The notes under the pieces were generated by a model. That model did no database searches, was not told where the DNA came from, and worked only from the letters and a program-made list of their open reading frames with translations. A stretch of DNA of 64,000 nt from an uncultured Candidatus Sumerlaeota bacterium (lineage in GTDB: Bacteria > Sumerlaeota > Sumerlaeia > MWCT01 > JAGHBZ01), in contig CAZSMK010000044.1 in the NCBI GenBank assembly GCA_964608095.1, forward strand, positions 1 through 64,000. Direction: 5' to 3'. Numbering within the stretch: position 1 is the stretch's first letter; every line of letters starts with the position of its first letter. Below, in pieces: positions 4,179-62,221 of this stretch. A program made the translations under genes and the position numbers.

Positions 4179-6062
4179 ATGGCCATGAAAAAAAGCATTG
4201 TAGCGCCATGGATTGTGTTATTATGTTTGCTAACATTCGTAGGACTCGCTGAAACCATTGTCATCGACAACAAATCAGCGGATTACACTACTACAGGTTC
4301 ATGGACAGAGGGGTCGTATGCCGGCTATCATGTAACCAATTATCACTTCACCGACACAGTAACAGGAACCGCAACGCATGAAGCGTCCTGGTCGCCAACA
4401 CTCTCGTCATCAGGCACTTATGAAGTATTCGTGTGGTATGTCGAGGGCACCAACCGTCCAACTGACGCTGAATATACTGTCAATCATAGCAGCGGTTCGA
4501 CAACGGTCTATGTAGATCAAACCACGAACGGTTCCCAATGGTACTCGTTGGGGAGTTACAGTTTTCCTGCAAGCGGCGGCTCGGTCGTGCTGAGCAACCA
4601 TTCGAGCACAAGCGGGAAAGCCGTGATCGCGGATGCGGTGAAATTGGTGCGGTCAGGCACCAGTTACGGAGACCTTTACCAGGGGATGTGGATTTATGCC
4701 TGGGGGGCGGGAATTCTTTCCGAGTCGCAGACCAATACCATGATAAGCACGGCACGTGACAATTATCTCAATATCATCTTCCCACAGGTGCGAAAAACAG
4801 GGGATGCGTATTATATAAGCGCGACTGAACCGCGTGGAACCAATATAGACCCCACTTATGAGGATCCCCTCGCCGATATCCTCCAAAAAGCGCATGATAC
4901 ATCAGGGGGTAAACAATTCATCGAGGTGCATGCATGGATCGTGCCGTACCGTGTATGGAATACCTCATTAGGCGACTATCCCACAAGTCATGTGCTTGCG
5001 GAACACCCTGAATGGAAAAACGAAACCTATAACGGCGACACACAAGACAGCGGGGGTAACACATATCTCGATCCCGGCGTACCCGATGCCATGGATTACG
5101 TGGTTGACGTGGTGAAAGAAATCGTTCAGAACTATGACGTGGACGGAATCCACTTTGATTATATTCGTTATCCGGGAAATACGTGGGGGTATAACACGAC
5201 AGCAATCAATCGTTTCAACACGCTTTATGGCAAAGCGGGAAAACCCTCTACCAGCGATCCTGATTTTTGCGATTTTCGACGCGACCAGATTTTCTTCCTG
5301 GCACGTAAAGCCTATGTCGCCGTGAAAGAGATCGACTGGGATTGCAAGATGTCGGCAGCAACGGTACAATGGGGCTCATACGGCGGGGATTTTACGGCGA
5401 CCTCCGCCTATACAAGCGTGTTCCAGGATTGGCCCAAATTTATGAGTGAAGGCGCCATGGATATGAACGTGCTCATGAACTACAAACGGGAACACCTGAC
5501 GGATCAAGCACAGGATTACCGAGACTGGTGCAATTTCCTTGCCTCGTCGAAGGCGGGGCGTCACGCCGTGAATGGACCGGGTGTGTATATGAATAGCATC
5601 GAGAACAGCGTTACACAAACCCTTTTCGGCATGGACACAACGGGAATTGACGGCACCAATTTTTACGTATATCACATGACAAACATGGACGGCGACCCGG
5701 CGGATGATTTCTGGTATACCATGCGGGCTGATTGCTATACACAGCAACGCAATGTACCCGCCGCTTCATGGCTTGACAGCCCACCACACGGAATCCTGAA
5801 AGGATATGTCACGAGCGGAAGCACCGATCTGGACGGTGCAACGGTCACGCTTTCCGACGGCGCGACCGATCAGTCACCTGCAGACGGCACAGGTTTCTAT
5901 GCATTCTTGAAACTCGCACCCGGAAGCTACACCGCTACCGCATCGGCAACAGGATATAATCCATTGGCAAAACCGGTTACCATTACCGCAGGAACAATAA
6001 CCACGGTGAACTTCGACCTGACATTGGTTCCCGTAGAACTAAGCGAGTTTACCATAGAATAG
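4179..6062 (+). CDS. Secreted glycoside-hydrolase-like family 10 (GHL10, PF02638-like) protein with N-terminal beta-sandwich domain and C-terminal carboxypeptidase-regulatory-like domain.
   Basis: RBS AAAGGAGA lies before the ATG. Signal peptide is present. Motif DVDGIHFDYIRYP matches YngK/YddW-type GHL10. N-terminal 160 aa are ~60% identical to the N-terminus of the 22824..25769 protein. A hairpin terminator follows. Confidence 0.85.
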   Translation: MAMKKSIVAPWIVLLCLLTFVGLAETIVIDNKSADYTTTGSWTEGSYAGYHVTNYHFTDTVTGTATHEASWSPTLSSSGTYEVFVWYVEGTNRPTDAEYTVNHSSGSTTVYVDQTTNGSQWYSLGSYSFPASGGSVVLSNHSSTSGKAVIADAVKLVRSGTSYGDLYQGMWIYAWGAGILSESQTNTMISTARDNYLNIIFPQVRKTGDAYYISATEPRGTNIDPTYEDPLADILQKAHDTSGGKQFIEVHAWIVPYRVWNTSLGDYPTSHVLAEHPEWKNETYNGDTQDSGGNTYLDPGVPDAMDYVVDVVKEIVQNYDVDGIHFDYIRYPGNTWGYNTTAINRFNTLYGKAGKPSTSDPDFCDFRRDQIFFLARKAYVAVKEIDWDCKMSAATVQWGSYGGDFTATSAYTSVFQDWPKFMSEGAMDMNVLMNYKREHLTDQAQDYRDWCNFLASSKAGRHAVNGPGVYMNSIENSVTQTLFGMDTTGIDGTNFYVYHMTNMDGDPADDFWYTMRADCYTQQRNVPAASWLDSPPHGILKGYVTSGSTDLDGATVTLSDGATDQSPADGTGFYAFLKLAPGSYTATASATGYNPLAKPVTITAGTITTVNFDLTLVPVELSEFTIE

Positions 6063-7545: not shown

Positions 7546-10500
7546 TCAGGGAGTGATGGTCACTTCGTCCATGGCGACGGAATTGAGATACAGGGAAGAA
7601 TATACATCGTCATTGGCGTCGAAACTGAGCATATCAAACGAAAGAAGAAGGGCGTCGTCACCAGTTCCCGCGACCAAAGGGTCAAGATAGACGTTATACA
7701 TTTTAGGATTGTCAATTGATGGTGCGTTACTGAGAAAACTATTCACGTTTCTGCTCCATGCAGACCACGAGCCTCTTTGATTGTGCCTGAGCCGGAACTG
7801 AACCGCCTTATCGGGGAAATCAACGCTGCTCTCGATTTCCCACTTTACTCGATAGACTTTGCCGTTCTGGATAGCAACATCGGGGCTGTACCAATACGAG
7901 AACGCATTGGCGGAGCCTTCGGGATTGAGCCCGATTTTACCAAACATGGTGATAGATGCCGGTGAATCGAATCCTCCCACAGTCCCCTGGAACACCCAGG
8001 CGTCAGTTCCCGAGACAAAGTCGTAATTCAACACCTTGCTACCCGGCGTTACATAGACCTCCTCGACAATCATCTGATTGAGAAAGGTCCATGAACCGAT
8101 ATCGTCATTTGCGTCGAAACTCAGAATGTCGAACGACAACACCACGAGATGATCATCGCTCAAGCTGCTTACGGCAGGGTCAAGGAAGAGGGTGTATATT
8201 TTCTGATTTCCGTCAGCGGGTGCGATTGAGAGATTACTGTTGACGTTTCGTTCCCAGCCGGACCATGCAGATTTCTGATTCGCGCGAAGCCGGAACTGAA
8301 CGGCATAATCTGGATTCGAGGTGGTGCTTCCCACAAGCCAGCGCGCACGATACAACCTGCCGTTCTTTACTGTAACATCGGGACTGAACCAGTAGGAGAA
8401 AGCATGAGAAGAACTCCCGGGAGATAAGCCAAGGACACCGTTTGACGCGGTATGGAGAGGCAGATCGAACGGACTAACCTGTCCTGCGAACTGCCATCCC
8501 TCGGCGCCGCTATCAAAGGTATAATACGCCGCAGGAGTAGGGATAGGCGTGGGAGTTGGAGTACCCATGCCGAACTCCACCCTGTCGAGCCATCCACAGT
8601 CGGAACCCGAGGCACTCTCGTCATCTTTCTGATACCACCACATAACAGGATAGGAGCCGGTATCTATTGCGTAAACTCGCTGACTCCAGTCTACCTCACC
8701 GCTTATCGATTCCTGTTCAACGCCATCAATATAAAACCTTAGAAAATCATGGTCTTCCTGTGAAGAAACTTTCCAATAAAAGCGCAGAGTGCCGGGTCCC
8801 TCCAGGGTAGTATAAATACGTGTGTATTTACTATCGGTTATGGGTGCACTTTGCGCTGCATCTCCATCGTAATAATAGGTCTGGAACGTAGGCATCCAAT
8901 CGCCGAATCCGGCGGTATCCCATGTAAGCAAGAGATTATCTACGGCTTCGCCGAGTGAAAGAGAAGGAGTGGGCGTAGGGGTAGGCGTAGGGGTGGGAAC
9001 CTGTCCTGGAGCAAATTCCACTTTATCGAGCCATGCACAATCGTCGTGATCGCTGAACGCATTATCTTTTTTGTACGTCCATGTTACGGTGTGATTACCG
9101 GGTTGGATGGGAAAAATCACCTGCTGCCAATCAACCTCACCGTTGATGCTCTCGATCTGCTCGCCATCAACATAGAATGCCACGTAATCCCAATACCACT
9201 GGCAGGAGACTTTCCAATAGAAGCTGAGCATTCCCGGTCCGGTAATGGATGTCGAAAGGGTAGATTGCTGGTTGTGCGAAATGGTTCCGCTGCGAGCGGC
9301 ATCGCCGCCGTATAAGTATACCTGGGTTTGTCCAAACCACTGCGCATTGCCTGATGTATTCCAGATAAAAGAAGTGTTGTCGAGCGCTTCGCCGAGAGAG
9401 GGACTTCCCGTAAACGAGACCTTGTCAACCCATCCGCAATCCAATCCTCCCGTGCCGGTGGCGTCCTTGTAATAAATCCAGCGGATAGTATGTTGTCCTG
9501 CATCGATAAGTTGTGTCTTCTCACGCCATGACGAAAGGAGCCAGCCGCTGATTTTTTCCTTGAGTACACTGTCCACGTAAAATTCGAGGTAGTCGTGACC
9601 GAGCTCAGATGAGACACGCCACCAGAAATTCAATGTTCCCGGTCCATTGATGGTTGTCTCGAGATAACTGCCCTGGTTATGAGAAACCGCGCCGCTTCGC
9701 GCTGCATCGAATCCATAGTAATACGAGTCCTGTTGTCCCGCCCAAAAGCCGCTCCCGTAAGTTGACCAGGAAAGTGAGGTATTGTCGACTGCCTCGCCCA
9801 ACGTTAAATTATCCGGGAAGAATTGCACGCGGTCGAGCCATCCATAATCGGTAGTATCGGAATATAAGGAGTACTCCCAACTCAGGACATGGGGACCCGG
9901 TGGAATGATAAATGTTTCCTGTTCCCACGAATTTTCATACGTCCATCCCTTGTTTACCCCATCGATGTAAAAATAGAAATCACCGCTGTAAGATATGTCG
10001 GAATCACGCCAGTAAAAGCTCAATGTACCGGGACCTGAAACCGACGTTTCGATGATGGATACCTGGTCTTTAGAAAGGGAGCCGGACTGAACGGCATCGC
10101 CTGCGTAGTAATAGGTTGAAGTCTGATTAAACCAGAGTGCGTCACCACGTGAAGTCCAGGGAAGAATTATGTTATCCACGCCATCGGCAAGCGAAGAGAT
10201 ACTGAAATTCACTTTATCGACATATCCCTGATCGAATCCGGCAGAGGCGGAGGCGTTTTTCTGGTAGTTCCAGAGGAGGGTGTGAGAACCGGCGGGTATG
10301 TCGTACGTCATCGGTTGCCAATCGACTTCGCCGCTGATCTCATCCTCAACTACACTATCAATCAGAAACTGGAGATAATCACCGCCCGGTTCCGATGATA
10401 CCTTCCAATAGAAGGATAATGTTCCCGGTCCTGTAACCGTTGTGTGCATGTAAGAATTCTGGTTGTCGGATATTTTGTAGCTTCGCGCAGCGTCGCCGCC

Positions 10501-12060
10501 GTAATAACTGATGAACTTCTGTCCGGTCCAGCTTGCTGTACCCCCGAAATACCATAATAATAGGGCATTATCCACCGCCTCACCGATGCTTACCGGGTTA
10601 TAGGTCGACACCATCAAATTGGCTATATAAAAGGACCCCACGTCCATAGGAACAATGTCAAGAACACAAACGCCAGTCCTGTTACCAGCGTAATTCCGGC
10701 TGTCGGGAATTGACTCATGTGTGAAGTATTGATTAGCGGAATAAAAATCACCTTTATCCCCGGACTTATTTTGCTCAATCTGCTCGAGCCCGTCTGCTTC
10801 CATCAGGCGAAGCAGTTTATGGCTTGTAAAGCTATTGTTATAGTAAAAATTGGTGCCCTCGGAGTTGAGTCGGGCATCAACGTGCCAGATAAGCAGACCG
10901 TCCGTGGGGAAAAAATGGTCGTTTGTGTCGGCATCGAGAGGCGAGCGGTTCTGAACAATGAAATATTCGGAGAAGATATCGTCCATTTGCAGACCGGGCA
11001 TAATGACCGCACAGTCTTTAAACGTGGAAGAGGGTCTGAGCAAATGAGAGTAGGGCATATTCAGAACGCTGCCGCTCCCGATAACGGTGGGAGAAACCCA
11101 GTCGAGGAGCCATTTACTGAAGGCATTATGGTCGCCCATGTTGGCGTCCATCATGTCCAGACCACCAACGCCGCCCATGGGACCAATTGCGTCGTCGTAA
11201 TCGTAATAATCGGGCAATCCGAGACCATGCCCGGTCTCATGAATAACGACCTTCGGCTTGAAGGTAGAGCCGACCGGGCGCCCTTCCCACTGCCAGGAAA
11301 AGACGCTCAAGCGTTTTCCATCGACGGTATACATGTCGTCTTTGAAAAAGCCACCCCCCATATCGCACCATGCCCACCATAATGTTAACCACCCGGTATC
11401 AGGACCGCTCCAGAAAACCATAAAAAAATCTATGACGCCATCGCCGTTGTTGTCATAGACCGAGAAATCATGCGTGGAGTTGAACGAGTTGATAGCCTCT
11501 TTGATCAGTTCGTTCACGCCACCGGCTTTATGGTAGTAAACCCTGTCGTTCTTGGCTCGATACCATGGAAACACATGACCTTGAATATCAAGGACACCAT
11601 AAGACGAACGGCGGTAATATTCCCTCAGGCTTTCGTAAGGCTTGTCGTCGGCGACACCATAGCCGAAAAGTTTCGTGTTGAATACGGAGTAGTCATTGGT
11701 GTGAGGGTAGTCAGGAAAATCGATAAGAAGGGCAAAGACCTTCGGGTTTCCATGTGAGGGTAAGCCGGTCTTATAGGGAAACGATTTGATATCGAATGCG
11801 CTACCTTCTTTGAGCGCGGAAAGTTGCGCCTGTTTTCGTGCGATCAAATCAGGATGGATTTCATAACAGCCAAGAAATCTGCCGAACTCGATGCGTTCCG
11901 CTAAGACGCCGTCTTTTCGCAAGGTGACGAGTTCATCTTTATCCGGTGGGGCAACACCGAACACCGTCAATGATGGTGCGAAGAGGAAAAGGCAGATCAA
12001 AGAAAGAAAAACCGGATTTTTAATACACCTAAAAGGGAACAACACGTAATGGAATCTCAT
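7546..12060 (-). CDS. Secreted M6 (immune inhibitor A-like) zinc metalloprotease of 1504 aa, with five ~128-aa repeat modules, two TP linkers and a C-terminal tandem pair of the unrecognised ~160-aa module.
   Basis: Catalytic motif VVIHETGHGLGLPDYYD (M6 HEXXH...E signature). Signal-peptide-like N-terminus. Repeat modules carry GPGTLSFYWKVSS...ISGEVDW...GWLDKV. C-terminal copies A (~8035-8530) and B (~7549-8034). Confidence 0.85.
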   Translation of the reverse strand: MRFHYVLFPFRCIKNPVFLSLICLFLFAPSLTVFGVAPPDKDELVTLRKDGVLAERIEFGRFLGCYEIHPDLIARKQAQLSALKEGSAFDIKSFPYKTGLPSHGNPKVFALLIDFPDYPHTNDYSVFNTKLFGYGVADDKPYESLREYYRRSSYGVLDIQGHVFPWYRAKNDRVYYHKAGGVNELIKEAINSFNSTHDFSVYDNNGDGVIDFFMVFWSGPDTGWLTLWWAWCDMGGGFFKDDMYTVDGKRLSVFSWQWEGRPVGSTFKPKVVIHETGHGLGLPDYYDYDDAIGPMGGVGGLDMMDANMGDHNAFSKWLLDWVSPTVIGSGSVLNMPYSHLLRPSSTFKDCAVIMPGLQMDDIFSEYFIVQNRSPLDADTNDHFFPTDGLLIWHVDARLNSEGTNFYYNNSFTSHKLLRLMEADGLEQIEQNKSGDKGDFYSANQYFTHESIPDSRNYAGNRTGVCVLDIVPMDVGSFYIANLMVSTYNPVSIGEAVDNALLLWYFGGTASWTGQKFISYYGGDAARSYKISDNQNSYMHTTVTGPGTLSFYWKVSSEPGGDYLQFLIDSVVEDEISGEVDWQPMTYDIPAGSHTLLWNYQKNASASAGFDQGYVDKVNFSISSLADGVDNIILPWTSRGDALWFNQTSTYYYAGDAVQSGSLSKDQVSIIETSVSGPGTLSFYWRDSDISYSGDFYFYIDGVNKGWTYENSWEQETFIIPPGPHVLSWEYSLYSDTTDYGWLDRVQFFPDNLTLGEAVDNTSLSWSTYGSGFWAGQQDSYYYGFDAARSGAVSHNQGSYLETTINGPGTLNFWWRVSSELGHDYLEFYVDSVLKEKISGWLLSSWREKTQLIDAGQHTIRWIYYKDATGTGGLDCGWVDKVSFTGSPSLGEALDNTSFIWNTSGNAQWFGQTQVYLYGGDAARSGTISHNQQSTLSTSITGPGMLSFYWKVSCQWYWDYVAFYVDGEQIESINGEVDWQQVIFPIQPGNHTVTWTYKKDNAFSDHDDCAWLDKVEFAPGQVPTPTPTPTPTPSLSLGEAVDNLLLTWDTAGFGDWMPTFQTYYYDGDAAQSAPITDSKYTRIYTTLEGPGTLRFYWKVSSQEDHDFLRFYIDGVEQESISGEVDWSQRVYAIDTGSYPVMWWYQKDDESASGSDCGWLDRVEFGMGTPTPTPIPTPAAYYTFDSGAEGWQFAGQVSPFDLPLHTASNGVLGLSPGSSSHAFSYWFSPDVTVKNGRLYRARWLVGSTTSNPDYAVQFRLRANQKSAWSGWERNVNSNLSIAPADGNQKIYTLFLDPAVSSLSDDHLVVLSFDILSFDANDDIGSWTFLNQMIVEEVYVTPGSKVLNYDFVSGTDAWVFQGTVGGFDSPASITMFGKIGLNPEGSANAFSYWYSPDVAIQNGKVYRVKWEIESSVDFPDKAVQFRLRHNQRGSWSAWSRNVNSFLSNAPSIDNPKMYNVYLDPLVAGTGDDALLLSFDMLSFDANDDVYSSLYLNSVAMDEVTITP
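7549..8530 (-). other. Tandem A+B copies of the unrecognised ~160-aa C-terminal module (M6 protease).
   Basis: YYTFDSGAEGWQF...FSYWFSPDV...YRARWLVGSTTSNPDYAVQFRLRANQ...LSFDILSFDANDD..SW, then a second copy ending DEVTITP-stop. Confidence 0.8.
8572..10584 (-). repeat. Five tandem ~128-aa protein modules of unrecognised family inside the M6 protease.
   Basis: Recurrent GEAVDN..W...W.GQ...YYGGDAA.SG.IS.NQ.S....T..GPGTLSFYW.VSS...DYL.FY.D......ISGEVDW......I..G.HT..W.Y.KD.....D.GW.D.V.F. Confidence 0.7.
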
Positions 12061-14076: not shown

Positions 14077-14631
14077 TCAGGGTTTGTTTGCATAAAGCGA
14101 CCAGTCACTAACGCTGGAAGATTCCGTGTAAGAGATGTCGTCAAGATAGAATTCATTAGTTGCGGGATCGGTAGCATCCCATGGAGCAGTGGAATTGATC
14201 ATAATATAACCACTAACTCCGGCTTTTGTCTGACCGCTTAAAGTTTTCGACTGCCATGTGCCAAGGAGTGTGTCGTCAAAGGCAATATTGGTGCCACCAG
14301 GATTATCCTTATCGAGATCGTAAGTATTCAACCCCAGCCCGTATTCGCTAATCGCAACGAGCTTGGTCCACGCCGTAATCTCGTAAGGGAGATCTTCGGC
14401 ACCGATAGTAACCGTGTTTCTCACGCCGCACCAGACGTCGCTATCCGTGCACTTGATAGAACCTGCAGCGTCATGAAACTCGACAGCGTCATGAGCGATC
14501 GTTGTGTTCCATGTGCTCGCGGCTGAATTCCACCCTTCTATGTCGGAATCAAACGTCCACAGCGAATTATCAGCCACACAAAGGGAAGCAACAGACATGG
14601 CAATAGCAATCACAAAAATACACTTTTTCAT
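14077..14631 (-). CDS. Small secreted CBM4/9-like beta-sandwich protein.
   Basis: RBS GGAGGAG. Signal peptide MKKCIFVIAIAMSVASLCVA. Begins WTFDSDIEGWNS, the F-D-S-x-x-E-G-W start typical of CBM_4_9-like domains. Confidence 0.65.
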   Translation of the reverse strand: MKKCIFVIAIAMSVASLCVADNSLWTFDSDIEGWNSAASTWNTTIAHDAVEFHDAAGSIKCTDSDVWCGVRNTVTIGAEDLPYEITAWTKLVAISEYGLGLNTYDLDKDNPGGTNIAFDDTLLGTWQSKTLSGQTKAGVSGYIMINSTAPWDATDPATNEFYLDDISYTESSSVSDWSLYANKP

Positions 14632-16608: not shown

Positions 16609-17289
16609 TCAACATACTTGGAATATTAAAAGGGTAGAAGAAAGTTCTTTTGAGAAAAGAGCCTTCTTCCACCCCAATGTTGAAAGCCTACAAAACGCTC
16701 GATCTGATGAACCAGATACTGCAGGGTCGATGATGACATCGAAAAACTTAACGCCGGTGGTCGACGGCGCATGCTGATTAAAACTGTTTACGATTCGGTA
16801 CCAGCTCGTCCATGTCCCCTTCTGGTTGACGCGTAAGCGAAATTGAACCTCAAGGTCAGCGTCGCTGCAATCGCTGCCCACCTGCCATCGTGAACGATAA
16901 ATCTTTGCGTCCTCTATCTGGACGTCGGGACTATAGAGGTACGAGAAACAGTTTGTCGAGAGCTACGGAGAAAGACCGGTTCCATCGATAACGGTTGTTT
17001 CCCGGCATATAAGATTATGGGGATCTTTACTTCTCAGATGTATTTCTTTTTTATCGAATTTGAGCGGTTCGTATCCTTCTCCGGCAGTGTAAACCCCCGG
17101 TGCGACGATTATGGTATCGCCAACCGGTCCCGCATCGTCCACCGCATCATACATTGAGTTGAATGCATCTTCCCACGACGTACCGTCGTTGTTTCCTGTA
17201 GCGTTAATATCTACATAAATGGTCTTTGCGATGGTTGTAGAGAACAAAAGACAACAAAAAATCAAAACAATAATATAGATTCTTTTCAT
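16609..17289 (-). pseudogene. Decayed gene. A signal peptide plus ~100 aa of a right-handed beta-helix N-terminus is fused, through an in-frame TAG (16963-16965), to the middle of an A-type copy of the unrecognised C-terminal module, and then frameshifted.
   Basis: Reads ...TTVIDGTGLSP-TAG-LSTNCFSYLYSPDVQIEDAKIYRSRWQVGS...VQFRLRVNQKGTWTSWYRIVNSFNQHAPS...DPAVSGSSD, then loses the consensus. The 3' end runs into the promoter region of the AKR gene. Confidence 0.6.
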
Positions 17290-19245: not shown

Positions 19246-20778
19246 GTGCGTAAAAAAGAATATATCACTGAATCAGTTCTGGGGATAGTGCTTGCGGTGT
19301 TGATAACAGTCATGATACTGAACGTGAATGTTGGATGTGCCGAATTGAAAGCCTTTGTCACCAATACAGGAAGCAATTCGGTGTCCGAGATCGACCTGGC
19401 GACAGGAGCGGTCAGTAACACCTATCCTGTAGGAACGCAACCAGTGGGCATAGGAGCTGACAAAAATGCCCATGTACTATATGTGGCAAACAGCGGGTCG
19501 CAGTCCGTAACAAAAATCGATCTGCACTCAGGTATAACGAGCACGCTCACCATCCCGGGTTCCGAACCCGAAAGTATCACAGTAAGCCCGGTTGATAACC
19601 TGGTCCTGGTGACATCAATGGAGCGGATTACCTCGGGCACCGGTTCTGCAAGTCTCGTTTACGTAATCGACAGTTCTTCGTTTACGGTTCTGGATTCTAT
19701 TCGCGTAGCCGACGATCCGGAAGACGACATCATCTCGGAAGATGGCCATCAGGCATGGATCGCCTCAGATGAAAAAATCCGGGAATTAGAGCTCAAGCCC
19801 TCGACCTTTCTCCAATTAACCGGCGTCATTTCAGGAACTGCGGGCATAGACGACTTCGAAGAGCTGGCGGTAGTGCCGGACAAATCCGTGCTGTTTGCCA
19901 CAAAGCCGGGACAAACACGCGTCGATGTCATCAGTCTATCAACCGAGACCATTATCGCCACAATCGCCACCGGCGCTGACCCTGAATCCGTAGTGTTACG
20001 ACCCGGCGGTGAGAAGGGCTACATTACCAACCAGCAGGGGAATTCGCTCACCATTTTTTCTCAGACGACCTATGATGTGGTTGACACAATGAATCTCAGT
20101 CTCATAGAAGCCCGTGGCATCGCGTTTATGCCCGATGGGTCGAATGGTTACGTGGTGATGTCGGGAAGCAATTCAGTAATTAAATTCGATCCGGATTCCT
20201 TGACCGAACTGGACACCATATCCGTGGGCACCCAACCTGAGGAAATTATCATCCTCGATGTTACCGCCCTTGAGCCGACTCCTACACCGATTGCGCACTA
20301 TGATTTCACAAGCGACGCGGAAGGATGGTCTTTCACGGGACAGGTGAATCCCTACGATCAACCACAATCGCGTGTGCAGGATGGACATATCGGGTTGAGC
20401 CCGAATGGTTCAACCAATTGCTTTTCCTACTGGTCCAGCCCCCACATTGAAATCGACGGAGCAAAACCTTACAGGGCTCGCTGGATTATGGGCAGCACCG
20501 TTTCGAATCCCGATCAGAGCGTGAATATTCGTCTTCGAGGAAACAATGTGGACAACTGGCTGAGCTGGCTTACTATTGTGAATAGTATAAACAGCGCCGC
20601 TCCCTCTTCAGGCGATTCAAAAATGTACGATTTGATAATGACGCCTGCCGGTGCTTCTGGTTCTAAAAGCCGCGTGCCGGATAACCTGGTGCTCAATTTT
20701 GACATTATGAGTTTCGAGATGAGCGACGATACCTCCTCATGGCTTTTTGCAGAGAGAGTGTGTCGCTCCAGGAAGTGA
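19246..20778 (+). CDS. Secreted YVTN-family beta-propeller protein carrying one intact A-type copy of the unrecognised C-terminal module (~20290-20760).
   Basis: YVTNTGSNSVSEIDL / YVANSGSQSVTKIDL repeats. LEPTPTPIAHYDFTSDAEGWSFTG...FSYWSSP...YRARWIMGSTVSNPD. GTG start with GGAGGT upstream; the ATG at ~19311 is an alternative. Confidence 0.7.
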   Translation: MRKKEYITESVLGIVLAVLITVMILNVNVGCAELKAFVTNTGSNSVSEIDLATGAVSNTYPVGTQPVGIGADKNAHVLYVANSGSQSVTKIDLHSGITSTLTIPGSEPESITVSPVDNLVLVTSMERITSGTGSASLVYVIDSSSFTVLDSIRVADDPEDDIISEDGHQAWIASDEKIRELELKPSTFLQLTGVISGTAGIDDFEELAVVPDKSVLFATKPGQTRVDVISLSTETIIATIATGADPESVVLRPGGEKGYITNQQGNSLTIFSQTTYDVVDTMNLSLIEARGIAFMPDGSNGYVVMSGSNSVIKFDPDSLTELDTISVGTQPEEIIILDVTALEPTPTPIAHYDFTSDAEGWSFTGQVNPYDQPQSRVQDGHIGLSPNGSTNCFSYWSSPHIEIDGAKPYRARWIMGSTVSNPDQSVNIRLRGNNVDNWLSWLTIVNSINSAAPSSGDSKMYDLIMTPAGASGSKSRVPDNLVLNFDIMSFEMSDDTSSWLFAERVCRSRK

Positions 20779-21132
20779 TAACCACAGACACGGGGAACAT
20801 AATCACCACGTATACGTTTGACTCAGGAGCGGAAGGTTGGACGTTTACAGAAAGTGTCCCCCCGTTCGACCCTCCAATCAGCAGCGCTTCGGAGGGTCAA
20901 CCAGACCGGTAACTGGCGCGCGTGGAACAAAATCGTACCCTCTTTTGGCGACAATTCTCCCACCAATACCACATACAAAGACTACGATCTCATTATCATT
21001 CCGCAGATGTCGACTGGTACGGATAACCTCGTTCTCAACTTTGACATCATGAGTTTCGATGTAAACAAAGACCTCTCGTCATGGTTGCTGCTCGACAACC
21101 TCGAGATAGAAGAGATCCTCATCGGTCCGTGA
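20760..21132 (+). pseudogene. Decayed B-type second copy of the C-terminal module. There is a +1 frameshift in a GTGTGT run (~20758-20763) and a ~60-codon internal deletion (~20885-20905).
   Basis: In a shifted frame: ESVSLQEVITTDTGNIITTYTFDSGAEGWTFTESVPPFDPPISSASEG, then a jump to LRRVNQTGNWRAWNKIVPSF...VLNFDIMSFDVNKD.SSWLLLDNLEIEEILIGP-stop. Confidence 0.55.
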
Positions 21133-22027: not shown

Positions 22028-22729
22028 ATGAAGGTAAGTATATTTTTGTATGCAATTTTGATGCTCCTGATGTGTCTTGTTACGGGGGTTCAAGCGGCAT
22101 TAACGTTACCCATCACCGACAATTTTCCATCAACCGGGACAGAGCAGTCCTGGGAAGACTATGATTCTGCGTATACCCTGGTTGAGGCATTCACTCCTTC
22201 AGCACCCAGCGGCGATGGCTACGTATTCAATGTCAACGACGGCTCGGGCTGGCAGGATGTCTTTCTGTCAGACGACGACGGTACTCTCGGTAATTACAAG
22301 ATTACGGCATATTTGTATCTTCCCAGCTCCGATGGTACAAACTGGGGTCGAGTTGGTATTTTTGGACGAGCACAAGGCACTCACTATACTACATTCCGTA
22401 ATTGTTATTTCTTCTGCGCTGACAGCGATGCCTCCGACTGCCTACGTGTCGGGAGGTATTATACTGATGGCAGCGATTGGGATGTTTACTATCAGGGTGA
22501 CGTGACATTAGACGCATGGCATAAGTTCGAGCTCGAACTCAGCAGCGCAAACATTGTAGCACGGCTCGATGATGTTGAGGTCTACTCAGGGACCGATGCT
22601 ACTGATTTCACCGCAGGGTACGTGGGAATTTTCAATTATATGGCGACGACATCCGCTCCACCTACCCGCTGTGACCGTATCACCATCGAGAGTTCCAACC
22701 TTGGTGTCGATGCATGGGATCTGTATTGA
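22028..22729 (+). CDS. Secreted concanavalin-A-like (LamG/DUF1080-like) beta-sandwich protein.
   Basis: RBS AAAGGAGGAAG. Signal peptide ...VTGVQA. Followed by a strong terminator. Confidence 0.55.
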   Translation: MKVSIFLYAILMLLMCLVTGVQAALTLPITDNFPSTGTEQSWEDYDSAYTLVEAFTPSAPSGDGYVFNVNDGSGWQDVFLSDDDGTLGNYKITAYLYLPSSDGTNWGRVGIFGRAQGTHYTTFRNCYFFCADSDASDCLRVGRYYTDGSDWDVYYQGDVTLDAWHKFELELSSANIVARLDDVEVYSGTDATDFTAGYVGIFNYMATTSAPPTRCDRITIESSNLGVDAWDLY

Positions 22730-22823: not shown

Positions 22824-25769
22824 TCAGGGAACTAACGTCATCTGATCAAATGAAGCTGATTCGAGGTACAGCCATGAGTTCTCGTTGTCAGTTGGATCAA
22901 AGTTAAGTATATCACATGATAGTACAACTATGCCCTCGTCAGCTCCCGTCACACACGGAGCAAACAATATGTCGTAGCTCTTAGGCTCGAGAGAGGTAGG
23001 ACTTTGCTTAAAAAAGCTGGGAACCACGCGTTCCCAACCCTGCCACGAGCCTTTCTGGTTGACTCTCAGCCGGAACTGCACGGCGTCGTCCGGCTCGCTC
23101 ACGCTGCTTGCCATCTCAAACCTTGCTCGATACATCCTCTCTGCCTCTATAGGAACATCCGGGCTGTACCAGTAGCCGAAACAATTGATGGAGCCATCCG
23201 GGCTGAGCCCGAGGTGGCTGGTTTCATTAACCGTCATGGGGGAGTCATAGGAGGATACATCTCCCACAAAAATCCATCCATCCGAATCGTCCATAAATTC
23301 ATAATGTTCAAGTTGTGCCCCGGTCTGTAATGAAACTTCATCAACGATAACTTCCTGGAGCATGAGCCATGATGAGCAGTCATCGGTCCATTCAAAACTC
23401 ATGACATCGAAATTCAGCACTACGGCATCACCGTCTTCACCGCTTACAGCGGGATTGAAAAACAAATCATACCACTTTGCCCTGGAAATGCAGCACGATT
23501 GTTGGTTGAAGCTGCTGACAATGCGGTTCCATCCCTGCCATGAACCAGTCTGGTTAACGCGCAGCCGGAACTGGACGGAATCATCCGCGTTACTGCATGT
23601 ACTTCCCATCAACCACCGAGCCCGGTAGAGTTTTTCGTCTTCTATGGAGAGGTACGGGCTGCTCCAATATGAAAAACAGTATGAAGAATAAAAAGGAGAA
23701 AGGCCGAGGTAGCCGCCCTGGCAAGACGAGGTTGCGATATCGTAATCCGCTATGTATCCGTGAAACTGCCACCCTTCGTTTCCGCTTTCAAAGGAGTACG
23801 TATGAATAGGAGTGGGTGTAGGTGTCGGTGAGGGTGTCGGCGTAAAAGAGGGTGTGGGTGAGGGTGTCGGCGTCGGGGTCTCGGTCGGGGTGACAGTGGG
23901 AGTGGGCGTTGGCGTAGGCGTCGGAGTCTGTGCAAAGTCGAAATCGAGTCTTGCTACCTCTCCTGCTGTTATATCGAAGGCAAGTGTTTGGTTGTCATAG
24001 CCCGTAAACGAAGCCGTGGCATGATAGTTAGCTCCCTCATCGAGTTTCAGGAAGGCATACCAGCCACAACCGTCGGTTGTTATGCTACCGCTCACACCGT
24101 TCGACAACGTTATGGTTGCGCCATCAATCGGGGTGCTCCCATAGGTGACTTTGCCGCGTAAAATACCCTGAGTCGGCGTATCGATCCAGTCAGCAGGAGG
24201 GACATCTCTCCGCTGCGTATAACAATCCGCTCGCATCGTGTACCAGAAATCCGTTGCCGGAAACTCGTTGTTTCTGTTGGTCGCCTTGTACTCGTAAAAG
24301 TTGGTACCCACGATATCGGGAATATCCAGTGCATAGAGAGTTTGGGTGACGCTGTCCTGGATATAGTTTAGATACACGCCTGGACCGTTAACGGCATGGC
24401 GTCCAGCGCAAGTGTCTGCAAGTTTATGAGCCCAATCGCGATAATCCTGCGCCTGACCTGAATAGTATTCTCGCTTGTAATTCATGAGCACGTTCATGTC
24501 CAGCAATCCCTCTTGCATGAATCCTACCCAGTCTTGGAACACAGAGGCGTAAGCGCTGCTCTTGGTGAAATCAGCGGGACAGCTGCCCCACTGGATGGTC
24601 GCTGCGGAGACTTTGCAATTCCAATCGATAGCCTTGACAGCGGCATAGACACGCCGCCCAAACTGGCGAATCTGGTCGCGCCGAAAATCGCAGAAATCAG
24701 GATCGCTTGTCGATGGAATTCCTGTTCTTCCATAGAGTGTATTGAACCTCTGAATTGCCACCGGATTGTAGCCCCAGCTGGTTCCCGGGTAACGATAATA
24801 ATCGAAATGAATACCGTCCACATCGTAATTGAGGACGATTTCTTCTACGACGTCGATGAGATAATCCTGGACGGCAGGGACACCGGGATCGATATAAATC
24901 GAACCGTCTGACTGAGAACCCGTGTTCGTCTGTCCTTTCCAATCAGGATGTTCAATAAGTACATGTCCGTCCGGTGGTGTACCGAGAGAGTCCCTCCAGA
25001 CCCTGTAGGGAACAAGCCACGCATGCACCTCGATATACTGCTTATCGTCAGAAGTATCATGTGCCTTGGCGAGAACATCACCGAGTGGATCATCGTAGCC
25101 GGATGCGACGTTATCCGCAAAGGGCTCGGTGGCGCTTTGGTAATACGCATCGCCCACCTTACGCACCTCCGGGAAGATTATGTTCATGTTGTTTTCCCGG
25201 GCGCACCCTATCATTGCATTCGTTTGCGACTCGGAATGAAATGATTGATTCCAGGACTGAATCCACATCCCCTGATAAAGATTATCGTAGGTAGTGCCGC
25301 TTCTGACGAAACGGACTGCGTCGGCAATGACCGCTTTATCAGCGGCGGACGAGTGATTGCTCAATACGACGGAGCCGCCGGTTGCGGGAAAATTATAGGT
25401 GCCTATAACGTGCCATTGAGAGCCATTTACCGTCTGGTCAACTTTGACCGTTGTGGCGCCGCCTGAATGATGTATAGTATATTCCGCATCCGTAGGGCGA
25501 TTTGTTCCTTCAAGGTACCATACCGCCACTTCAAAGGTACCGGCAGAGTTGAATTCGGGCGACCAGGTGGCAAGATGCGTGGCTGAACCGCTCACTGTAA
25601 GGGCATATTGGTATCCCGTGACATGATAGCCGGCGGAACTTCCCTCCTGCCAGGCCCCACTCAGGAGAAAAGAACCGCTCTGGTCATCAATAATAAGTGT
25701 TTCCGAACCGGCTGTTGACAGCGCAAAAACCATAACCATAGATAGTAAAACACTGATGTAGTTTTGCAT
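22824..25769 (-). CDS. Secreted GHL10 (PF02638-like) protein with N-terminal beta-sandwich domain, TP linker and C-terminal A+B tandem pair of the unrecognised module.
   Basis: AGGAGG RBS before ATG 25769 (MQNYISVLLSMVMVFALSTAGS signal peptide); the track ORF is longer. DVDGIHFDYYRYP is present. Linker [27 protein letters not shown]. Module copies at ~23319-23807 and ~22827-23318. Confidence 0.85.
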   Translation of the reverse strand: MQNYISVLLSMVMVFALSTAGSETLIIDDQSGSFLLSGAWQEGSSAGYHVTGYQYALTVSGSATHLATWSPEFNSAGTFEVAVWYLEGTNRPTDAEYTIHHSGGATTVKVDQTVNGSQWHVIGTYNFPATGGSVVLSNHSSAADKAVIADAVRFVRSGTTYDNLYQGMWIQSWNQSFHSESQTNAMIGCARENNMNIIFPEVRKVGDAYYQSATEPFADNVASGYDDPLGDVLAKAHDTSDDKQYIEVHAWLVPYRVWRDSLGTPPDGHVLIEHPDWKGQTNTGSQSDGSIYIDPGVPAVQDYLIDVVEEIVLNYDVDGIHFDYYRYPGTSWGYNPVAIQRFNTLYGRTGIPSTSDPDFCDFRRDQIRQFGRRVYAAVKAIDWNCKVSAATIQWGSCPADFTKSSAYASVFQDWVGFMQEGLLDMNVLMNYKREYYSGQAQDYRDWAHKLADTCAGRHAVNGPGVYLNYIQDSVTQTLYALDIPDIVGTNFYEYKATNRNNEFPATDFWYTMRADCYTQRRDVPPADWIDTPTQGILRGKVTYGSTPIDGATITLSNGVSGSITTDGCGWYAFLKLDEGANYHATASFTGYDNQTLAFDITAGEVARLDFDFAQTPTPTPTPTPTVTPTETPTPTPSPTPSFTPTPSPTPTPTPIHTYSFESGNEGWQFHGYIADYDIATSSCQGGYLGLSPFYSSYCFSYWSSPYLSIEDEKLYRARWLMGSTCSNADDSVQFRLRVNQTGSWQGWNRIVSSFNQQSCCISRAKWYDLFFNPAVSGEDGDAVVLNFDVMSFEWTDDCSSWLMLQEVIVDEVSLQTGAQLEHYEFMDDSDGWIFVGDVSSYDSPMTVNETSHLGLSPDGSINCFGYWYSPDVPIEAERMYRARFEMASSVSEPDDAVQFRLRVNQKGSWQGWERVVPSFFKQSPTSLEPKSYDILFAPCVTGADEGIVVLSCDILNFDPTDNENSWLYLESASFDQMTLVP
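22827..23807 (-). other. Tandem A+B copies of the unrecognised ~160-aa C-terminal module (GHL10 protein).
   Basis: IHTYSFESGNEGWQFHG...CFSYWSSP...YRARWLMGSTCSNADDSVQFRLRVNQTGSWQGW...VLNFDVMSFEWTDDCSSW. The second copy ends DQMTLVP-stop. Confidence 0.8.
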
Positions 25770-26470: not shown

Positions 26471-27274
26471 ATGGATATTTTAAAAAGAACGATTGCCCCT
26501 ATTATTGATAATGCCTGGGATGAAATAGAAGAACAGGCGAAACTGACGCTCAAAGGAAATCTTTCAGCCCGCGGTATTGTCGATTTTAGCGGTCCGCATG
26601 GCATGAAAAAGGACTCTGTTAATCTTGGTAAAGTTGAGAAAGGACAGACAACAAAAGGGGTAACATGGGGAATTCGAAAAGTCCTTCCCCTTGTGGAGAT
26701 GAAGGTTCCTTTTAAACTGAGCCTTACAGAGCTTGACGATGTCTCGCGGGGACTGAAGAATCCGGAACTCGATGCGGTGGAGGGCGCGGCTCGCAACGCA
26801 GCGTTGTTCGAAGAGAATGCGTTATATCACGGGTTTCCCAAAGCAGGAATCGAGGGCATTATCCCCTCCTCACCTCACAAAGCAGTGAGCATTCCCGCAA
26901 ATGTGTCAAAATATCCCGAGGCTATAGAACAGGCGATATTGACCCTTGAACAAGCAGGTATCGGTGGAGATTATACCCTTGTGCTCGGAACCGAGACGTA
27001 TAGCATCCTCATGCAGGGCGATGAAAAAGGATATCCCTTAAACAAGCGCGTCGCGGATATGATTCGAGGCAAAATTTTATGGAGTCCGGCACTAACTGGC
27101 GGTGTCCTGATATCCACACGCGGCGGTGATTACGAAATGGTTGTAGGTCAGGATTTCTCGCTCGGTTATTCTTCACATACCTCCGAATCGGTGGAGCTCT
27201 TCCTTATGGAATCGTTTACGTTCCAGGTGCTGGAACCGAGAGCAGCCGTAGAATTGAAACCCAAAAAGAAATAA
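26471..27274 (+). CDS. Family-1 encapsulin shell protein (Linocin_M18 / HK97 fold).
   Basis: RBS AAAGGAGGAA. MDILKRTIAPIIDNAWDEIEEQA...GGDYEMVVGQDFSLGY...ESFTFQVLEP is collinear with Thermotoga maritima encapsulin. Confidence 0.9.
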   Translation: MDILKRTIAPIIDNAWDEIEEQAKLTLKGNLSARGIVDFSGPHGMKKDSVNLGKVEKGQTTKGVTWGIRKVLPLVEMKVPFKLSLTELDDVSRGLKNPELDAVEGAARNAALFEENALYHGFPKAGIEGIIPSSPHKAVSIPANVSKYPEAIEQAILTLEQAGIGGDYTLVLGTETYSILMQGDEKGYPLNKRVADMIRGKILWSPALTGGVLISTRGGDYEMVVGQDFSLGYSSHTSESVELFLMESFTFQVLEPRAAVELKPKKK

Positions 27275-57989: not shown

Positions 57990-58594
57990 AGTGCCGATGA
58001 AGAACGTTCAATACTTTTCTTTTTTGCCATTTTCGCCCGTGCCACGGCTGCCGCCTGTGCGTCACCCAGCGCTATATGAATTCTACGGATATTATCTTTG
58101 CTTTCAGGAATCTTGACTTTTTCGAACAGGTTAACCCGTTGCGACGTAATCCTCAATTCCTCGCTTAGTCTGGTTAAGGCAAGGTGAAGAATCTGTTCTT
58201 CGATTTCAAATCTCACCAGGCGTTCGATAACGTCCATTGCGTCATCAATAAACGGCGGTGTGGCAAAGAGGTCAACCGGCGCCCGCTTGAACTCGATTGA
58301 TTGAATGACCGGAATATCCACCCCTGCAATGTTGTCGGAACCGATGTCCACCGATTCGATTTCCACGAGGTTCTCGAGGGGCACGTCGTCGGAAAACAGA
58401 CGCACCCACTCCATGACCTCCTGCCATAATTTACGTTTTTCTTTCCGCTTTTTATCGATGCGAGCCGACATATGACTGACCTCGATTCGCAACTGCTGTT
58501 TCTTGAGTTCGAGTGTGGGAAGATACTTTTCGAAACGCCTGAGCGCGTCGCGTTGCGCCTTGAGTTCTGTCTTGGTTTTCCTGATCTTGCCCAC
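57986..58594 (-). CDS. ntpD: V/A-type ATPase subunit D.
   Basis: TKTELKAQRDALRRFEKYLPTLELKKQQL is the NtpD signature. Overlaps ntpI by 4 nt. Confidence 0.85.
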   Translation of the reverse strand: MGKIRKTKTELKAQRDALRRFEKYLPTLELKKQQLRIEVSHMSARIDKKRKEKRKLWQEVMEWVRLFSDDVPLENLVEIESVDIGSDNIAGVDIPVIQSIEFKRAPVDLFATPPFIDDAMDVIERLVRFEIEEQILHLALTRLSEELRITSQRVNLFEKVKIPESKDNIRRIHIALGDAQAAAVARAKMAKKKSIERSSSAL

Positions 58595-58612
58595 GTATAT
58601 CTCCCATTACGC

Positions 58613-61682: not shown

Positions 61683-62221
61683 TGCTCGACCACCTTATTC
61701 TGCAAATTCTCCTCGATGATGGTTTGTAATCTTTCCTTTCCGCGGTCGGCGTCGAGTTTCGACCAGCGATAGGCAATCTTCAACTTGATAATAAAACCGA
61801 GAATCGCAAAGGAACCAAAAGGACCGAAAAACAAAAGATTATCAAGTATCCACCAGCGTAAAAGGTCCAGTGCGCGTTCACGTTCAATCGGATTGTCGAG
61901 CGACATAGCATTATGCACCATGGTCTCGAGGTTGACATCATACCCCTGGAACTCACGAAGAAAAGGTTCAGATTCGGTCTTGCTGCGCCCTGCCCTTATG
62001 CGCGCCACTGTCGAACGTAACTGCGTATCACGGTACACATATTCTTTCACCAGTCTATTGCTGCATTGTTCCGGATGACCCGAGAGAATGAGTTGCGCAT
62101 CGCGTGTATCCTTTTCCGCCAGAAGATGCTCACACGCATTCAGAAACTCCTCTGGAGAAAAGGGAACCGGCTCGTCGAGAACGAGCATTGGCAGACTGGC
62201 AACAAGGTAATGGTACGACAC
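61679..62221 (-). CDS. DUF2764-like protein occupying the subunit-C position in Bacteroidetes/Chlamydia-type V-ATPase operons.
   Basis: 180-aa ORF between ntpE and ntpA, overlapping ntpA by 4 nt. Assignment rests on operon position and size. Confidence 0.55.
   Translation of the reverse strand: MSYHYLVASLPMLVLDEPVPFSPEEFLNACEHLLAEKDTRDAQLILSGHPEQCSNRLVKEYVYRDTQLRSTVARIRAGRSKTESEPFLREFQGYDVNLETMVHNAMSLDNPIERERALDLLRWWILDNLLFFGPFGSFAILGFIIKLKIAYRWSKLDADRGKERLQTIIEENLQNKVVEQ

Follow-up and report, generated by a model that had tools for sequence, protein, structure and literature searches.

A C-terminal domain family, usually in tandem and with a predicted CBM4-type jelly-roll fold, on exported proteins of Candidatus Sumerlaeota

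Here we describe a module of about 162 residues, carried by exported proteins of Candidatus Sumerlaeota, that is with good support a previously unnamed domain family, new by sequence and known by fold. It had been noticed in a stretch of 64,000 nucleotides from an uncultured bacterium of this phylum (hereafter the window), in a sequence-only reading that could match it to no known domain family. Our results agree: Pfam, NCBIfam and PDB sequence searches gave no significant match, and a PDB profile search with the module gave no match. The consensus proposed earlier was correct when checked against the module alignments; the family's own motif set is CFSYWxSP, VQFRLRxNQKGSWQAW and SFDIMSFDxxDD. 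The R-L-R-x-N-Q strand is invariant across the family, with R81 present in 100% and R83 in 99% of 225 modules, in A (first) and B (second) copies alike. By sequence the family contains subfamilies of type I and type II, and genome CAYRXI has both.

Copies were placed by tblastn with the family consensus over the window (Table 1). The copies reported before are real, namely the intact pairs of the M6 and GHL10 proteins, a lone copy with a decayed partner behind it in the YVTN protein, and one remnant; no further copy was detected in the window by this search. Pairwise they are 39-50% identical, with E-values of 1e-35 to 1e-63, a likeness far above chance. Together the modules amount to ~3.0 kb or 4.7% of the window, about half of the ~9% first estimated.

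Table 1. Module copies, linkers and host genes in the window
Feature	Position	Strand	Remarks
Host gene 1, secreted M6-family metalloprotease, 1504 aa	7546-12060	-	TIGR03296 138 bits; PF05547
Stop codon after M6 copy B	7546-7548	-
M6 metalloprotease, module copy B	7549-8034	-	Ends at C-terminal Pro; tblastn positions 1-162, E 1.9e-58
M6 metalloprotease, module copy A	8044-8529	-	Protein residues ~1177-1342; tblastn positions 2-162, E 1.5e-63
Short Thr-Pro linker TPTPTPIPTP before M6 pair	8533-8562	-	Read from translation
Module remnant (positions 35-126)	16702-16977	-	tblastn E 4e-35; translations
Host gene 3, YVTN/YncE-type beta-propeller, 510 aa as called	19246-20778	+	TIGR02276 74 bits; PF21783
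YVTN beta-propeller, module copy A (positions 1-153)	20290-20760	+	tblastn E 1.8e-53
YVTN beta-propeller, decayed module copy B	20802-21129	+	tblastn; three-frame translation
Host gene 2, GHL10 hydrolase-like protein	22824-25769	-	PF25275, PF02638, PF13620
GHL10 protein, module copy B	22827-23312	-	Ends in C-terminal Pro; tblastn positions 1-162, E 6e-60
GHL10 protein, module copy A	23313-23807	-	tblastn, alignment
Long Thr-Pro-rich linker before GHL10 pair	23808-23927	-	Translation; Tandem Repeats Finder array 23836-23929

The host domains named earlier were recovered for the M6 (TIGR03296), GHL10 (PF02638) and YVTN (TIGR02276) proteins, but the fragment called a beta-helix had no Pfam match and merely resembles, over its 108 residues, the N termini of beta-helix cargo proteins found elsewhere. 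The M6 protein contains internal repeats of ~125 aa and is identical to database protein P0048, which lies on JGI contig MLSed_10000251. Host gene 2 has the architecture Golvesin_C-GHL10-CarboxypepD_reg; its start is probably the ATG at 25767-25769 (MQNYISV..., signal peptide), giving a product of 981 aa identical to P0043, which begins MQNYISVLL. The YVTN protein is identical to P0090, and frame analysis places a frame break right before the last strand of its copy A. Of the following copy B, 20802-20897 encodes positions 1-32 in a different frame and 20893-21129 encodes positions 83-162; it has lost ~50 codons and undergone a frameshift. Similarly, the remnant is in frame with a 108-aa signal-peptide ORF (16963-17289), directly past its stop codon at 16963-16965, and the two are a pseudogene made by deletion. 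Two other proteins of the window considered as module relatives, a secreted protein of 184 aa (14077-14631) and one of 233 aa (22028-22729), were rejected at hhalign probabilities of 2% and 0.2%, respectively. Rfam and tRNA scans were both empty.

An exhaustive profile search of 1.84 billion proteins returned 892 cluster representatives at E<=1e-3 and 264 at E<=1e-30. With so many homologues outside this contig, the module is not an assembly artefact, a possibility that the sequence-only reading had raised. Its proposed lineage specificity is borne out as well, because every instance that could be assigned to an organism belongs to Candidatus Sumerlaeota, a widespread and uncultured phylum. 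In a genome scan, seeded by an alignment of five sequences, the module was found only in four Sumerlaeota MAGs, with ~22 loci from MAG AUK269 alone; the two peptide patterns used are type-I motifs, so this genome count is a lower bound and skewed to close relatives. The named matches of a word-indexed protein search, whose matched sequences are fragments of 300 aa or less, were Sumerlaeota or Sumerlaeia, and a distant member, P0172, was located in a Sumerlaeota MAG. It is thus well supported that the module is found so far only in this candidate phylum, where copies number dozens per genome. The phylum-level Sumerlaeota genome literature that we checked does not mention envelope or secretion systems.

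Across the family, the architecture is more varied than the window suggests. The module had been described as always paired; among the best 146 representatives, 122 carry two copies (~84%) and 24 carry one, and in related MAG loci seven or more proteins whose N-terminal region is complete have just one copy. Location at the extreme C terminus stands for 142 of the 146 (~97%), in which at most 10 residues follow the module; in 87 of the 146 the last residue is the same, Pro. It does not hold for P0046, P0055, P0159 and P0120, in which the last module is followed by over 50 residues. Placement is clearly internal or N-terminal in three of these (in P0046 and P0055 the pair precedes an FGE-sulfatase-like domain and in P0159 it lies at the N terminus), and P0120 has a 72-residue tail. 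A (Thr-Pro)n linker had been reported for each copy; this is so in the window but usually not in the family, where 30 of 126 representatives have at least 40% Thr/Pro over the 30 residues upstream of the module.

An AlphaFold model of a single module (M6 copy B; pLDDT 92.5, pTM 0.86) is a beta-jelly-roll that superposes on solved CBM4 modules. Its best structural matches are carbohydrate-binding modules (CBMs), with 7-20% identity to the solved CBMs. The assignment of the module to the type-B beta-jelly-roll fold of the CBM4/9/16/22 group is well supported by this model, and a distant homology to the group is probable. The case for CBM4 consists of the similar fold and an hhalign match of moderate probability; no database-wide match was significant. 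A 29-sequence profile aligned with Cellulomonas fimi CenC CBM4-1 (sequence confirmed as PDB 1ULO) at a probability of 80.6% and a pairwise E-value of 1.3e-5, over 77 of 162 columns with 29% identity. The full host proteins have no Pfam CBM_4_9 (PF02018) match at E<=0.1, and among 29 modules scanned at E<=10 this model appeared in only three, with a best E-value of 0.019, under the gathering score. An earlier hint of a distant CBM4/9 relationship is in line with the superposition and the hhalign alignment; in Pfam the matches are sub-threshold.

In the hhalign alignment, invariant R81 corresponds to CfCBM4-1 Arg75 and Q86 to Gln80. Arg75 is the top ligand hydrogen-bond donor of CfCBM4-1 (PMC6267901, Table 2). 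Which way the conserved arginines face was inferred from this alignment and from the alternation pattern of the strand. A model of the A+B pair (pLDDT 96.3, pTM 0.92) contains a strand that runs unbroken over the A-B junction, TFLNQMIVEEVYVTPGSKVLNY. On this prediction A and B make up a single rigid body, the final strand of A passing directly into the opening strand of B. Among solved structures, none matched the pair over its whole extent. Among its structural matches is the CBM22-1/CBM22-2 tandem of Paenibacillus barcinonensis Xyn10C (PDB 4XUP), aligned over 145 residues, that is, one domain's worth; since one domain alone superposes, the inter-domain geometry is not common to the two.

The earlier description of host proteins as exported by a signal peptide and unrelated in their N-terminal domains is supported: by a crude test, the N terminus is signal-peptide-like in 85 of 103 complete members. 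The cargo of 59 full-length members includes Beta_helix (13), DUF1565 (7), Peptidase_S8 (4), NosD (4), FGE-sulfatase (2) and Cohesin (2), besides single cases of M14, C11, C25, RCC1, FG-GAP, CARDB and GEVED; hydrolase-type cargo is limited to GH113 and GHL10. At least eight glycoside hydrolases of the window (GH20+GH10, GH39, GH43, GH9, melibiase and two GHL10 among them) lack the module. Pfam and NCBIfam detected no other sorting tag on module-bearing proteins, the SLH, dockerin, PEP-CTERM and LPXTG models included, and the window's other exported proteins carry neither T9SS C-terminal domains nor other tags. An all-against-all BLAST of the ORFs in 32 loci revealed no recurrent neighbour gene family that could encode machinery or a receptor, and no secretion genes are present in the 64-kb window; T9SS machinery (SprA/Sov, PorV, PorU and others) was seen neither there nor in the short MAG loci.

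We propose tentatively, and with rather less than even confidence, that the module pair serves as a general glycan-binding tether of exported proteins to the surface or matrix. Each copy would keep a cleft for a glycan chain, with the R-L-R-x-N-Q strand equivalent to the Arg75-bearing cleft strand of CenC CBM4-1, and with a cleft kept in each copy the rigid pair could bind polysaccharide bivalently. The glycan bound would most likely belong to the envelope or matrix of the producer itself, because the cargo is mixed, mostly not carbohydrate-active and without another recognisable anchor. The pair would then retain enzymes and adhesin-like proteins on the cell surface after export, by non-covalent binding, the job of SLH, CWB2 and LysM repeats, here done by a CBM-like fold. 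The mixed cargo, together with the glycoside hydrolases of the window that lack the module, favours such a tether over a substrate-targeting CBM or a secretion signal. A uniform binding site within a genome was rejected as an argument for a self ligand: the coexistence of type I and type II in CAYRXI does not fit a picture of one genome, one self ligand and one binding site. More specifically, the tandem might be the address tag of a Sumerlaeota-specific surface-display system, acting through a lineage-specific envelope glycan or through a receptor or machinery, which we consider possible if somewhat doubtful; just as doubtfully, a CBM4-derived rigid double jelly-roll might have replaced tags of the SLH, T9SS-CTD or PEP-CTERM type in such a system, as the usual way of keeping exported proteases, hydrolases and adhesin-like proteins on the envelope. 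This reading is drawn from cargo diversity and module position.

A CBM of the ordinary kind would instead bring the secreted enzymes onto a polymer of the environment that serves these heterotrophs as food; in mats and sediments this could be chitin, hemicellulose, EPS or debris of cell walls. Type-B CBMs have this fold and the cleft arginine aligned here, tandem CBMs are common (the CBM22 tandem is one of the matches), free cellulase-like enzymes typically have Thr-Pro linkers, and the non-C-terminal placement in four of 146 representatives is usual for CBMs. The Beta-helix, DUF1565 and NosD cargo, present in ~1/3 of members, may act on polysaccharides as lyases or hydrolases, which counts against a tether. 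Moreover, the window is rich in glycoside hydrolases and Sumerlaeota have been described as polysaccharide and chitin degraders (PMC8092238). We regard substrate targeting, in which the surface of the producer would play no part, as somewhat less likely than a tether: a recognisable glycoside-hydrolase-type domain is present in only two of 59 members, proteases, propellers, cohesin, FG-GAP, RCC1 and CARDB predominate as cargo, the many glycoside hydrolases of the same window do without the module, and strict C-terminal location in 97% with dozens of copies per genome is more typical of address tags.

The near-uniform C-terminal ending, often on Pro, could also point to a secretion or sorting domain for an outer-membrane translocon or sortase-like machinery, possibly removed later and analogous to the T9SS C-terminal domain with a different fold. 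The cargo (proteases, beta-helix adhesin-like proteins, propellers) resembles that of T9SS or PEP-CTERM systems, and the terminal B copy tends toward higher conservation than A (B-B 47% versus A-A 43% identity in the MAG loci). We find this improbable, since TIGR04183, TIGR04131 and other sorting-signal models had no match even at E<=1, the unit is a jelly-roll of 162-325 residues as against an Ig-like sandwich of ~80-100 residues, copy number is one or two, non-terminal members exist, neither a neighbour gene for machinery nor, in the window, a secretion gene was found, and the conserved residues align with those of a CBM ligand cleft. There is similarly little to be said for pairs that dock on a protein partner or on each other, in the manner of dockerin-cohesin or gingipain domains, for surface complexes or cell adhesion. 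Two members contain cohesin domains and, in the model, free edge strands are exposed on the rigid pair; however, CBMs come first among the structural matches, the strand with the highest conservation is aligned to a cleft that binds sugar, no partner family was found, and the Pfam Cleaved_Adhesin (PF07675), dockerin and cohesin models do not match the module.

Among known systems, CBM4 modules (CenC CBM4-1, 1ULO; Rhodothermus marinus CBM4-2, 4BJ0) share the N-terminal F-[DE]-x-G-x-E-G-W, the C-terminal L-Y-L-[DE]-x-V strand and tandem occurrence, CenC carrying two N-terminal CBM4 modules. By contrast, the Sumerlaeota module is nearly always at the extreme C terminus, on mostly non-carbohydrate-active cargo and in a single candidate phylum, and its pair is predicted to be rigidly fused via a shared strand. 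CBM22, CBM16, CBM61 and CBM70, also among the closest systems, are N-terminal or internal modules of xylanases or lyases. T9SS C-terminal domains are alike in occupying the extreme C terminus of dozens of mixed Sec-exported proteins per genome with similar cargo, but they differ in fold and size and in that the Sumerlaeota module is duplicated and has rare non-terminal members. The T9SS domain is an Ig-like beta-sandwich of about 70-100 residues, as compared with a 162-residue, usually duplicated jelly-roll, and a check suggested by the sequence-only reading gave no TIGR04183 or TIGR04131 match on the M6, GHL10 and YVTN proteins (NCBIfam, E<=1). SLH triplets, CWB2 and LysM share the proposed principle, by which exoproteins of many kinds are kept on a polymer of the envelope through glycan-binding repeats at one end of the protein; their fold and sequence are unrelated, with no Pfam SLH, CW_binding or LysM match. 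The gingipain cleaved adhesin (Kgp K1, PDB 4ITC) gave a structural score below CBM4 and no sequence match. In gingipains, a T9SS C-terminal domain comes after the cleaved-adhesin domains.

Dozens of exported proteins in a genome thus bear one and the same domain, from a family missing in Pfam and NCBIfam. The module is therefore usable as a marker of the surface proteome or exoproteome of the phylum, and it deserves a family definition. The annotation of these C-terminal tails is also corrected, from hypothetical to CBM4-like tandem. Should the pair bind a self glycan, it would represent a new non-covalent solution to surface display from a CBM fold and offer a handle on the envelope polymer of an uncultured phylum. 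Should the glycan be environmental instead, the module would make up a new CBM family, unusual for its rigid bivalent geometry, and might be put to use as a probe or affinity tag.

The history of the pair differs in part from what had been proposed. A copies had been described as closer to other A copies than to the adjacent B, yet M6 copy A is 50% identical to M6 copy B and 45-47% to other A copies, and in general an A copy has a mean identity of 40% to its own B versus 31% to other A copies. One deep A/B split is rejected on these identities and on the neighbour-joining tree: a single ancient split would give one change of label, 32 were observed, and five pairs are sister tips. A and B are thus not two ancient clades, and the proposed ancient A-B unit shuffled as a cassette is supported only in part. 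The A/B labels do cluster on the tree, with the 32 changes set against ~72 at random, and the nearest neighbour in another protein is of the same positional type for 88 of 107 A copies and 91 of 107 B copies, indicating that pairs have been copied as units.

The predicted models and searches described here indicate that the C-terminal module, of about 162 residues, is a CBM4-like domain, with which one candidate phylum tags the C-termini of heterogeneous exported proteins in the form of a tandem predicted to be rigid. A six-frame ORF list, together with tblastn using the family consensus, placed the module almost to the base where the sequence-only reading had put it, and tblastn over the 64 kb revealed no further copies. 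The copies total about 3.0 kb, which is 4.7% of the window rather than the roughly 9% claimed earlier. Identity between them is 39-50%, and 36 columns are invariant in an alignment of the five intact window copies.

Positions of module copies, host genes and other features in the window
Feature	Position	Strand	Basis or remark
Single long ORF	1-2700	minus	open throughout, past the window start and past 2700
(TPTPTxTP)n linkers, 24/48-nt tandem arrays	403-646, 1159-1318, 1841-1992
GHL10 paralogue	4179-6062	plus	Golvesin_C + GHL10 + CarboxypepD_reg
M6 metalloprotease, 1504 aa	7546-12060	minus	TIGR03296, 138 bits
M6 module copy B, C-terminal	7549-8034	minus	tblastn with family consensus
M6 module copy A	8044-8529	minus	tblastn with family consensus
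M6 tandem repeats, residues ~490-1163	approx. 8572-10590	minus
M6 internal Thr-Pro linker, one	8965-9000
184-aa signal-peptide protein	14077-14631	minus	no Pfam family
Module remnant, positions 35-126 only	16702-16977	minus	tblastn, translation
YVTN propeller	19246-20778	plus
YVTN module copy, one	20290-20760	plus	tblastn; last strand lost to frameshift
YVTN second copy, positions 1-32	20802-20897		another frame
YVTN second copy, positions 83-162	20893-21129
Golvesin_C-GHL10-CarboxypepD_reg protein	22824-25769/25868	minus	Pfam domains
GHL10-protein C-terminal module copies	23313-23807, 22827-23312	minus	tblastn with family consensus
Encapsulin shell protein	26471-27274	plus	Linocin_M18, E 2e-81
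Glycoside hydrolase cluster	27404-52651
V/A-type ATPase operon	56205-62854	minus

Based on tblastn and frame translation, the second copy behind the YVTN propeller has suffered a deletion of about 50 codons and a frameshift, a combination that a simple sequencing error would not yield. The remnant shares its frame with a 108-aa signal-peptide ORF and directly follows that ORF's stop codon, and this locus is a pseudogene from an internal deletion; the earlier "beta-helix" label for the 108-aa fragment has no Pfam support.

Neither Pfam nor NCBIfam nor a profile run against every PDB sequence gave the module a significant match, which bears out its description as unrecognised. A word-indexed protein search returned 37 fragments, and all organism-named ones belong to Candidatus Sumerlaeota or Sumerlaeia. 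When one genome was scanned for each of 185,579 species, relatives turned up in four MAGs only, all Sumerlaeota, with about 22 loci in AUK269 and about 9 in binchicken_co40_80, counts that are a lower bound since the scan used two peptide patterns only. The profile search that had been proposed for homologues beyond the contig, run exhaustively with HMMER and a 29-module profile, recovered 892 cluster representatives at E<=1e-3, 726 at 1e-10 and 264 at 1e-30. Its library held the M6, GHL10 and YVTN proteins of the window (P0048, P0043 and P0090, respectively); the window itself is part of contig MLSed_10000251 (101.7 kb) of JGI metagenome 3300001533. A distantly related member, P0172, maps to the Sumerlaeota MAG JAUWMI, on a contig of 294 kb. 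The family is large and, as far as it can be traced, confined to one candidate phylum.

An AlphaFold2 model of M6 copy B (29-sequence alignment) is all-beta, with a pLDDT of 92.5 and a pTM of 0.86. Lower-ranked structural matches were CBM22, CBM15, MAM domains, Eph ligand-binding domains and the gingipain K1 adhesin domain (12.0); identities to the structural matches are 4-20%, and Foldseek agreed. In hhalign, the family profile matched Cellulomonas fimi CenC CBM4-1 (CenC sequence checked as PDB 1ULO, 151/152 identical) with a probability of 80.6% and an E-value of 1.3e-5, at 29% identity over 77 columns and with the N-terminal F-D-x-G-x-E-G-W motifs of the two in register. With Pfam CBM_4_9, 3 of 29 modules gave sub-threshold hits (best E 0.019), and the formal Pfam test does not place the module in that family. 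The module probably belongs, as a divergent member, to the CBM4/9-like jelly-roll superfamily, and the hint of such a fold in the sequence-only reading was right.

Among 225 modules, R81 (100%) and R83 (99%) are the most conserved residues, followed by W13, F6, Y61, F45, D134, W48, S99, P119, F133 and L150. As R81 and R83 alternate with hydrophobic F80 and L82 on one strand, their side chains should point out of the sandwich. The hhalign alignment places R81 on CfCBM4-1 Arg75 and Q86 on Gln80; among the hydrogen-bond donors of that cleft, Arg75 is listed with the highest ligand occupancy (PMC6267901, Table 2). The conserved cleft-aligned residues are kept in both A and B copies, which suggests that both clefts may be functional and the pair bivalent. 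In a model of the M6 A+B pair (AlphaFold2, 31-pair alignment; pLDDT 96.3, pTM 0.92), DSSP reads the last strand of A and the first of B as a single continuous strand, TFLNQMIVEEVYVTPGSKVLNY. The geometry of the pair is predicted to be rigid, which would account for the constant A-B spacer of 3-4 residues.

The tandem pair is usual rather than universal: 122 of the 146 best representatives carry two copies and 24 carry one, none has three full copies, and at least seven single-copy proteins in the MAG loci have complete N-terminal regions. The module lies within 10 residues of the protein end in 142 of these 146, and the final residue is Pro in 87. The claim of an invariably extreme C-terminal position thus holds apart from four exceptions, which look genuine. 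In P0159 a signal peptide and an A-B pair are followed by another 783 residues; P0120 ends in a 72-residue tail behind a single copy that matches model positions 3-142 only. In P0046 the order is signal peptide, A-B pair and FGE-sulfatase-like domain, and in P0055 it is N-terminal region, A-B pair and the same type of domain; these two proteins are both diverged, and their shared placement of the pair immediately before this domain is a conserved departure from the rule of terminal position. A Thr-Pro linker, said to precede the module each time, does so for the M6 pair (a short TPTPTPIPTP directly ahead) and the GHL10 pair (about 40 residues), but family-wide only 30 of 126 members have a Thr/Pro-rich linker. 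Judged by a crude hydrophobicity test, the N terminus is signal-peptide-like in 85 of 103 complete members.

Sequence subfamilies are two, type I (NCFSYW...VQFRLRVNQKGSWQAW) and type II (NTNTFGYW...VPQxRLRVxSxxFQ). The signatures YRARW.VGS and YRARFE.SS, proposed to separate A from B, hold for the type I subfamily of the window organism and AUK269. Within the window, the A copy of the M6 protein is nearest to its own B copy (50%), ahead of the A copies of the GHL10 (47%) and YVTN (45%) proteins, against the earlier statement that A resembles A over the adjacent B. Across 107 pairs, the nearest neighbour in another protein is of the same type for 88 A and 91 B copies. The nearest neighbour of single copies is an A copy in 8 of 11. 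Mean identity of an A copy is 40% to its own B, 31% to other A and 30% to other B copies, and no alignment column strongly separates A from B (107 pairs). In a neighbour-joining tree built from these 214 modules, 32 A/B label changes are needed (random mean 71.6, minimum 57), whereas just one would be enough for a single ancient split. Five A-B pairs are sister tips, and the largest clades of one type only comprise 23 copies for A and 18 for B. Pairs propagate as units among related paralogues, and positional A/B identity has been reset many times, via gene conversion or repeated duplication. An ancient A-B cassette is thus an overstatement, although the copying of pairs as units stands.

What the data show are the fold, the size of the family, its taxonomic confinement, the rules of position, the mixed cargo and the conservation of residues aligned with the CBM4 cleft; glycan binding and the kind of glycan are inferred. 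Cargo domains in 59 full-length members include Beta_helix (13), DUF1565 (7), Peptidase_S8 and NosD (4 each), FGE-sulfatase, Cohesin, LTD and Chlam_PMP (2 each) and, once each, Peptidase_M14, C11, C25, GH113, GHL10, RCC1, FG-GAP, Laminin_G_3, GEVED and CARDB, among others. Three points favour a general tether, holding proteins to an envelope or matrix glycan of the producer itself, over a substrate-targeting CBM: most cargo is not carbohydrate-active; at least eight glycoside hydrolases in the window, including the GHL10 paralogue at 4179-6062, lack the module; and the module behaves as an address tag, being terminal, present in dozens per genome and fast in turnover (of the four copies in the window, two are decayed). 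Three points count against a self-glycan tether, namely that the plentiful beta-helix cargo may be lyases, that type I and type II modules can occur together in one genome and that the phylum-level papers covered gave no account of the Sumerlaeota envelope.

Given how strictly terminal the module is, and its conserved C-terminal Pro, it might also be read as a T9SS-like sorting signal. This is unlikely, as TIGR04183 and TIGR04131 gave no match, neither fold nor size fits a T9SS C-terminal domain, the number of copies varies, non-terminal members are known, and no machinery was found in the 32 module loci or the window. No gene family recurs beside module-bearing genes in those 32 loci.

The M6 protein further contains five or six tandem repeats of about 125 residues (GEAVDN..LxW...W.GQ...YYGGDAARSG.I..NQ.S...T.V.GPGTLSFYWKVSSE..DYL.FY.DG....ISGEVDW......I..G.H.L.W.Y.KD......D.GW.D.V.F), which match nothing in Pfam or NCBIfam and are a second unrecognised repeat family within this protein. 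The 184-aa protein opens with WTFDSDIEGW, a CBM4_9-like motif, but hhalign (probability 2%) rejects it as a relative of the module. The ORF at the window start, whose C terminus lies outside the window, shows by eye a DUF11-like domain and two GEVED-like domains (DFGDAPD...NGEVEDY), with a propeller-like region after them; the (TPTPTxTP)n linkers between the DUF11-like and GEVED-like domains are very long and explain the high GC and the GC skew seen over the first 2 kb. The 64 kb contain no tRNA genes and no Rfam families at gathering score. An encapsulin gene lies between GHL10 genes, and the dense cluster beyond it encodes GHL10, a GH20+GH10 fusion (1021 aa), NPCBM-melibiase, GH39, GH43, GH9, DUF6259 and a GDPD+GDSL fusion, none with a module. 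The GHL10 paralogue near the window start lacks the linker and A-B pair and ends ...LVPVELSEFTIE; the two paralogues form a natural isoform pair, with and without the module.
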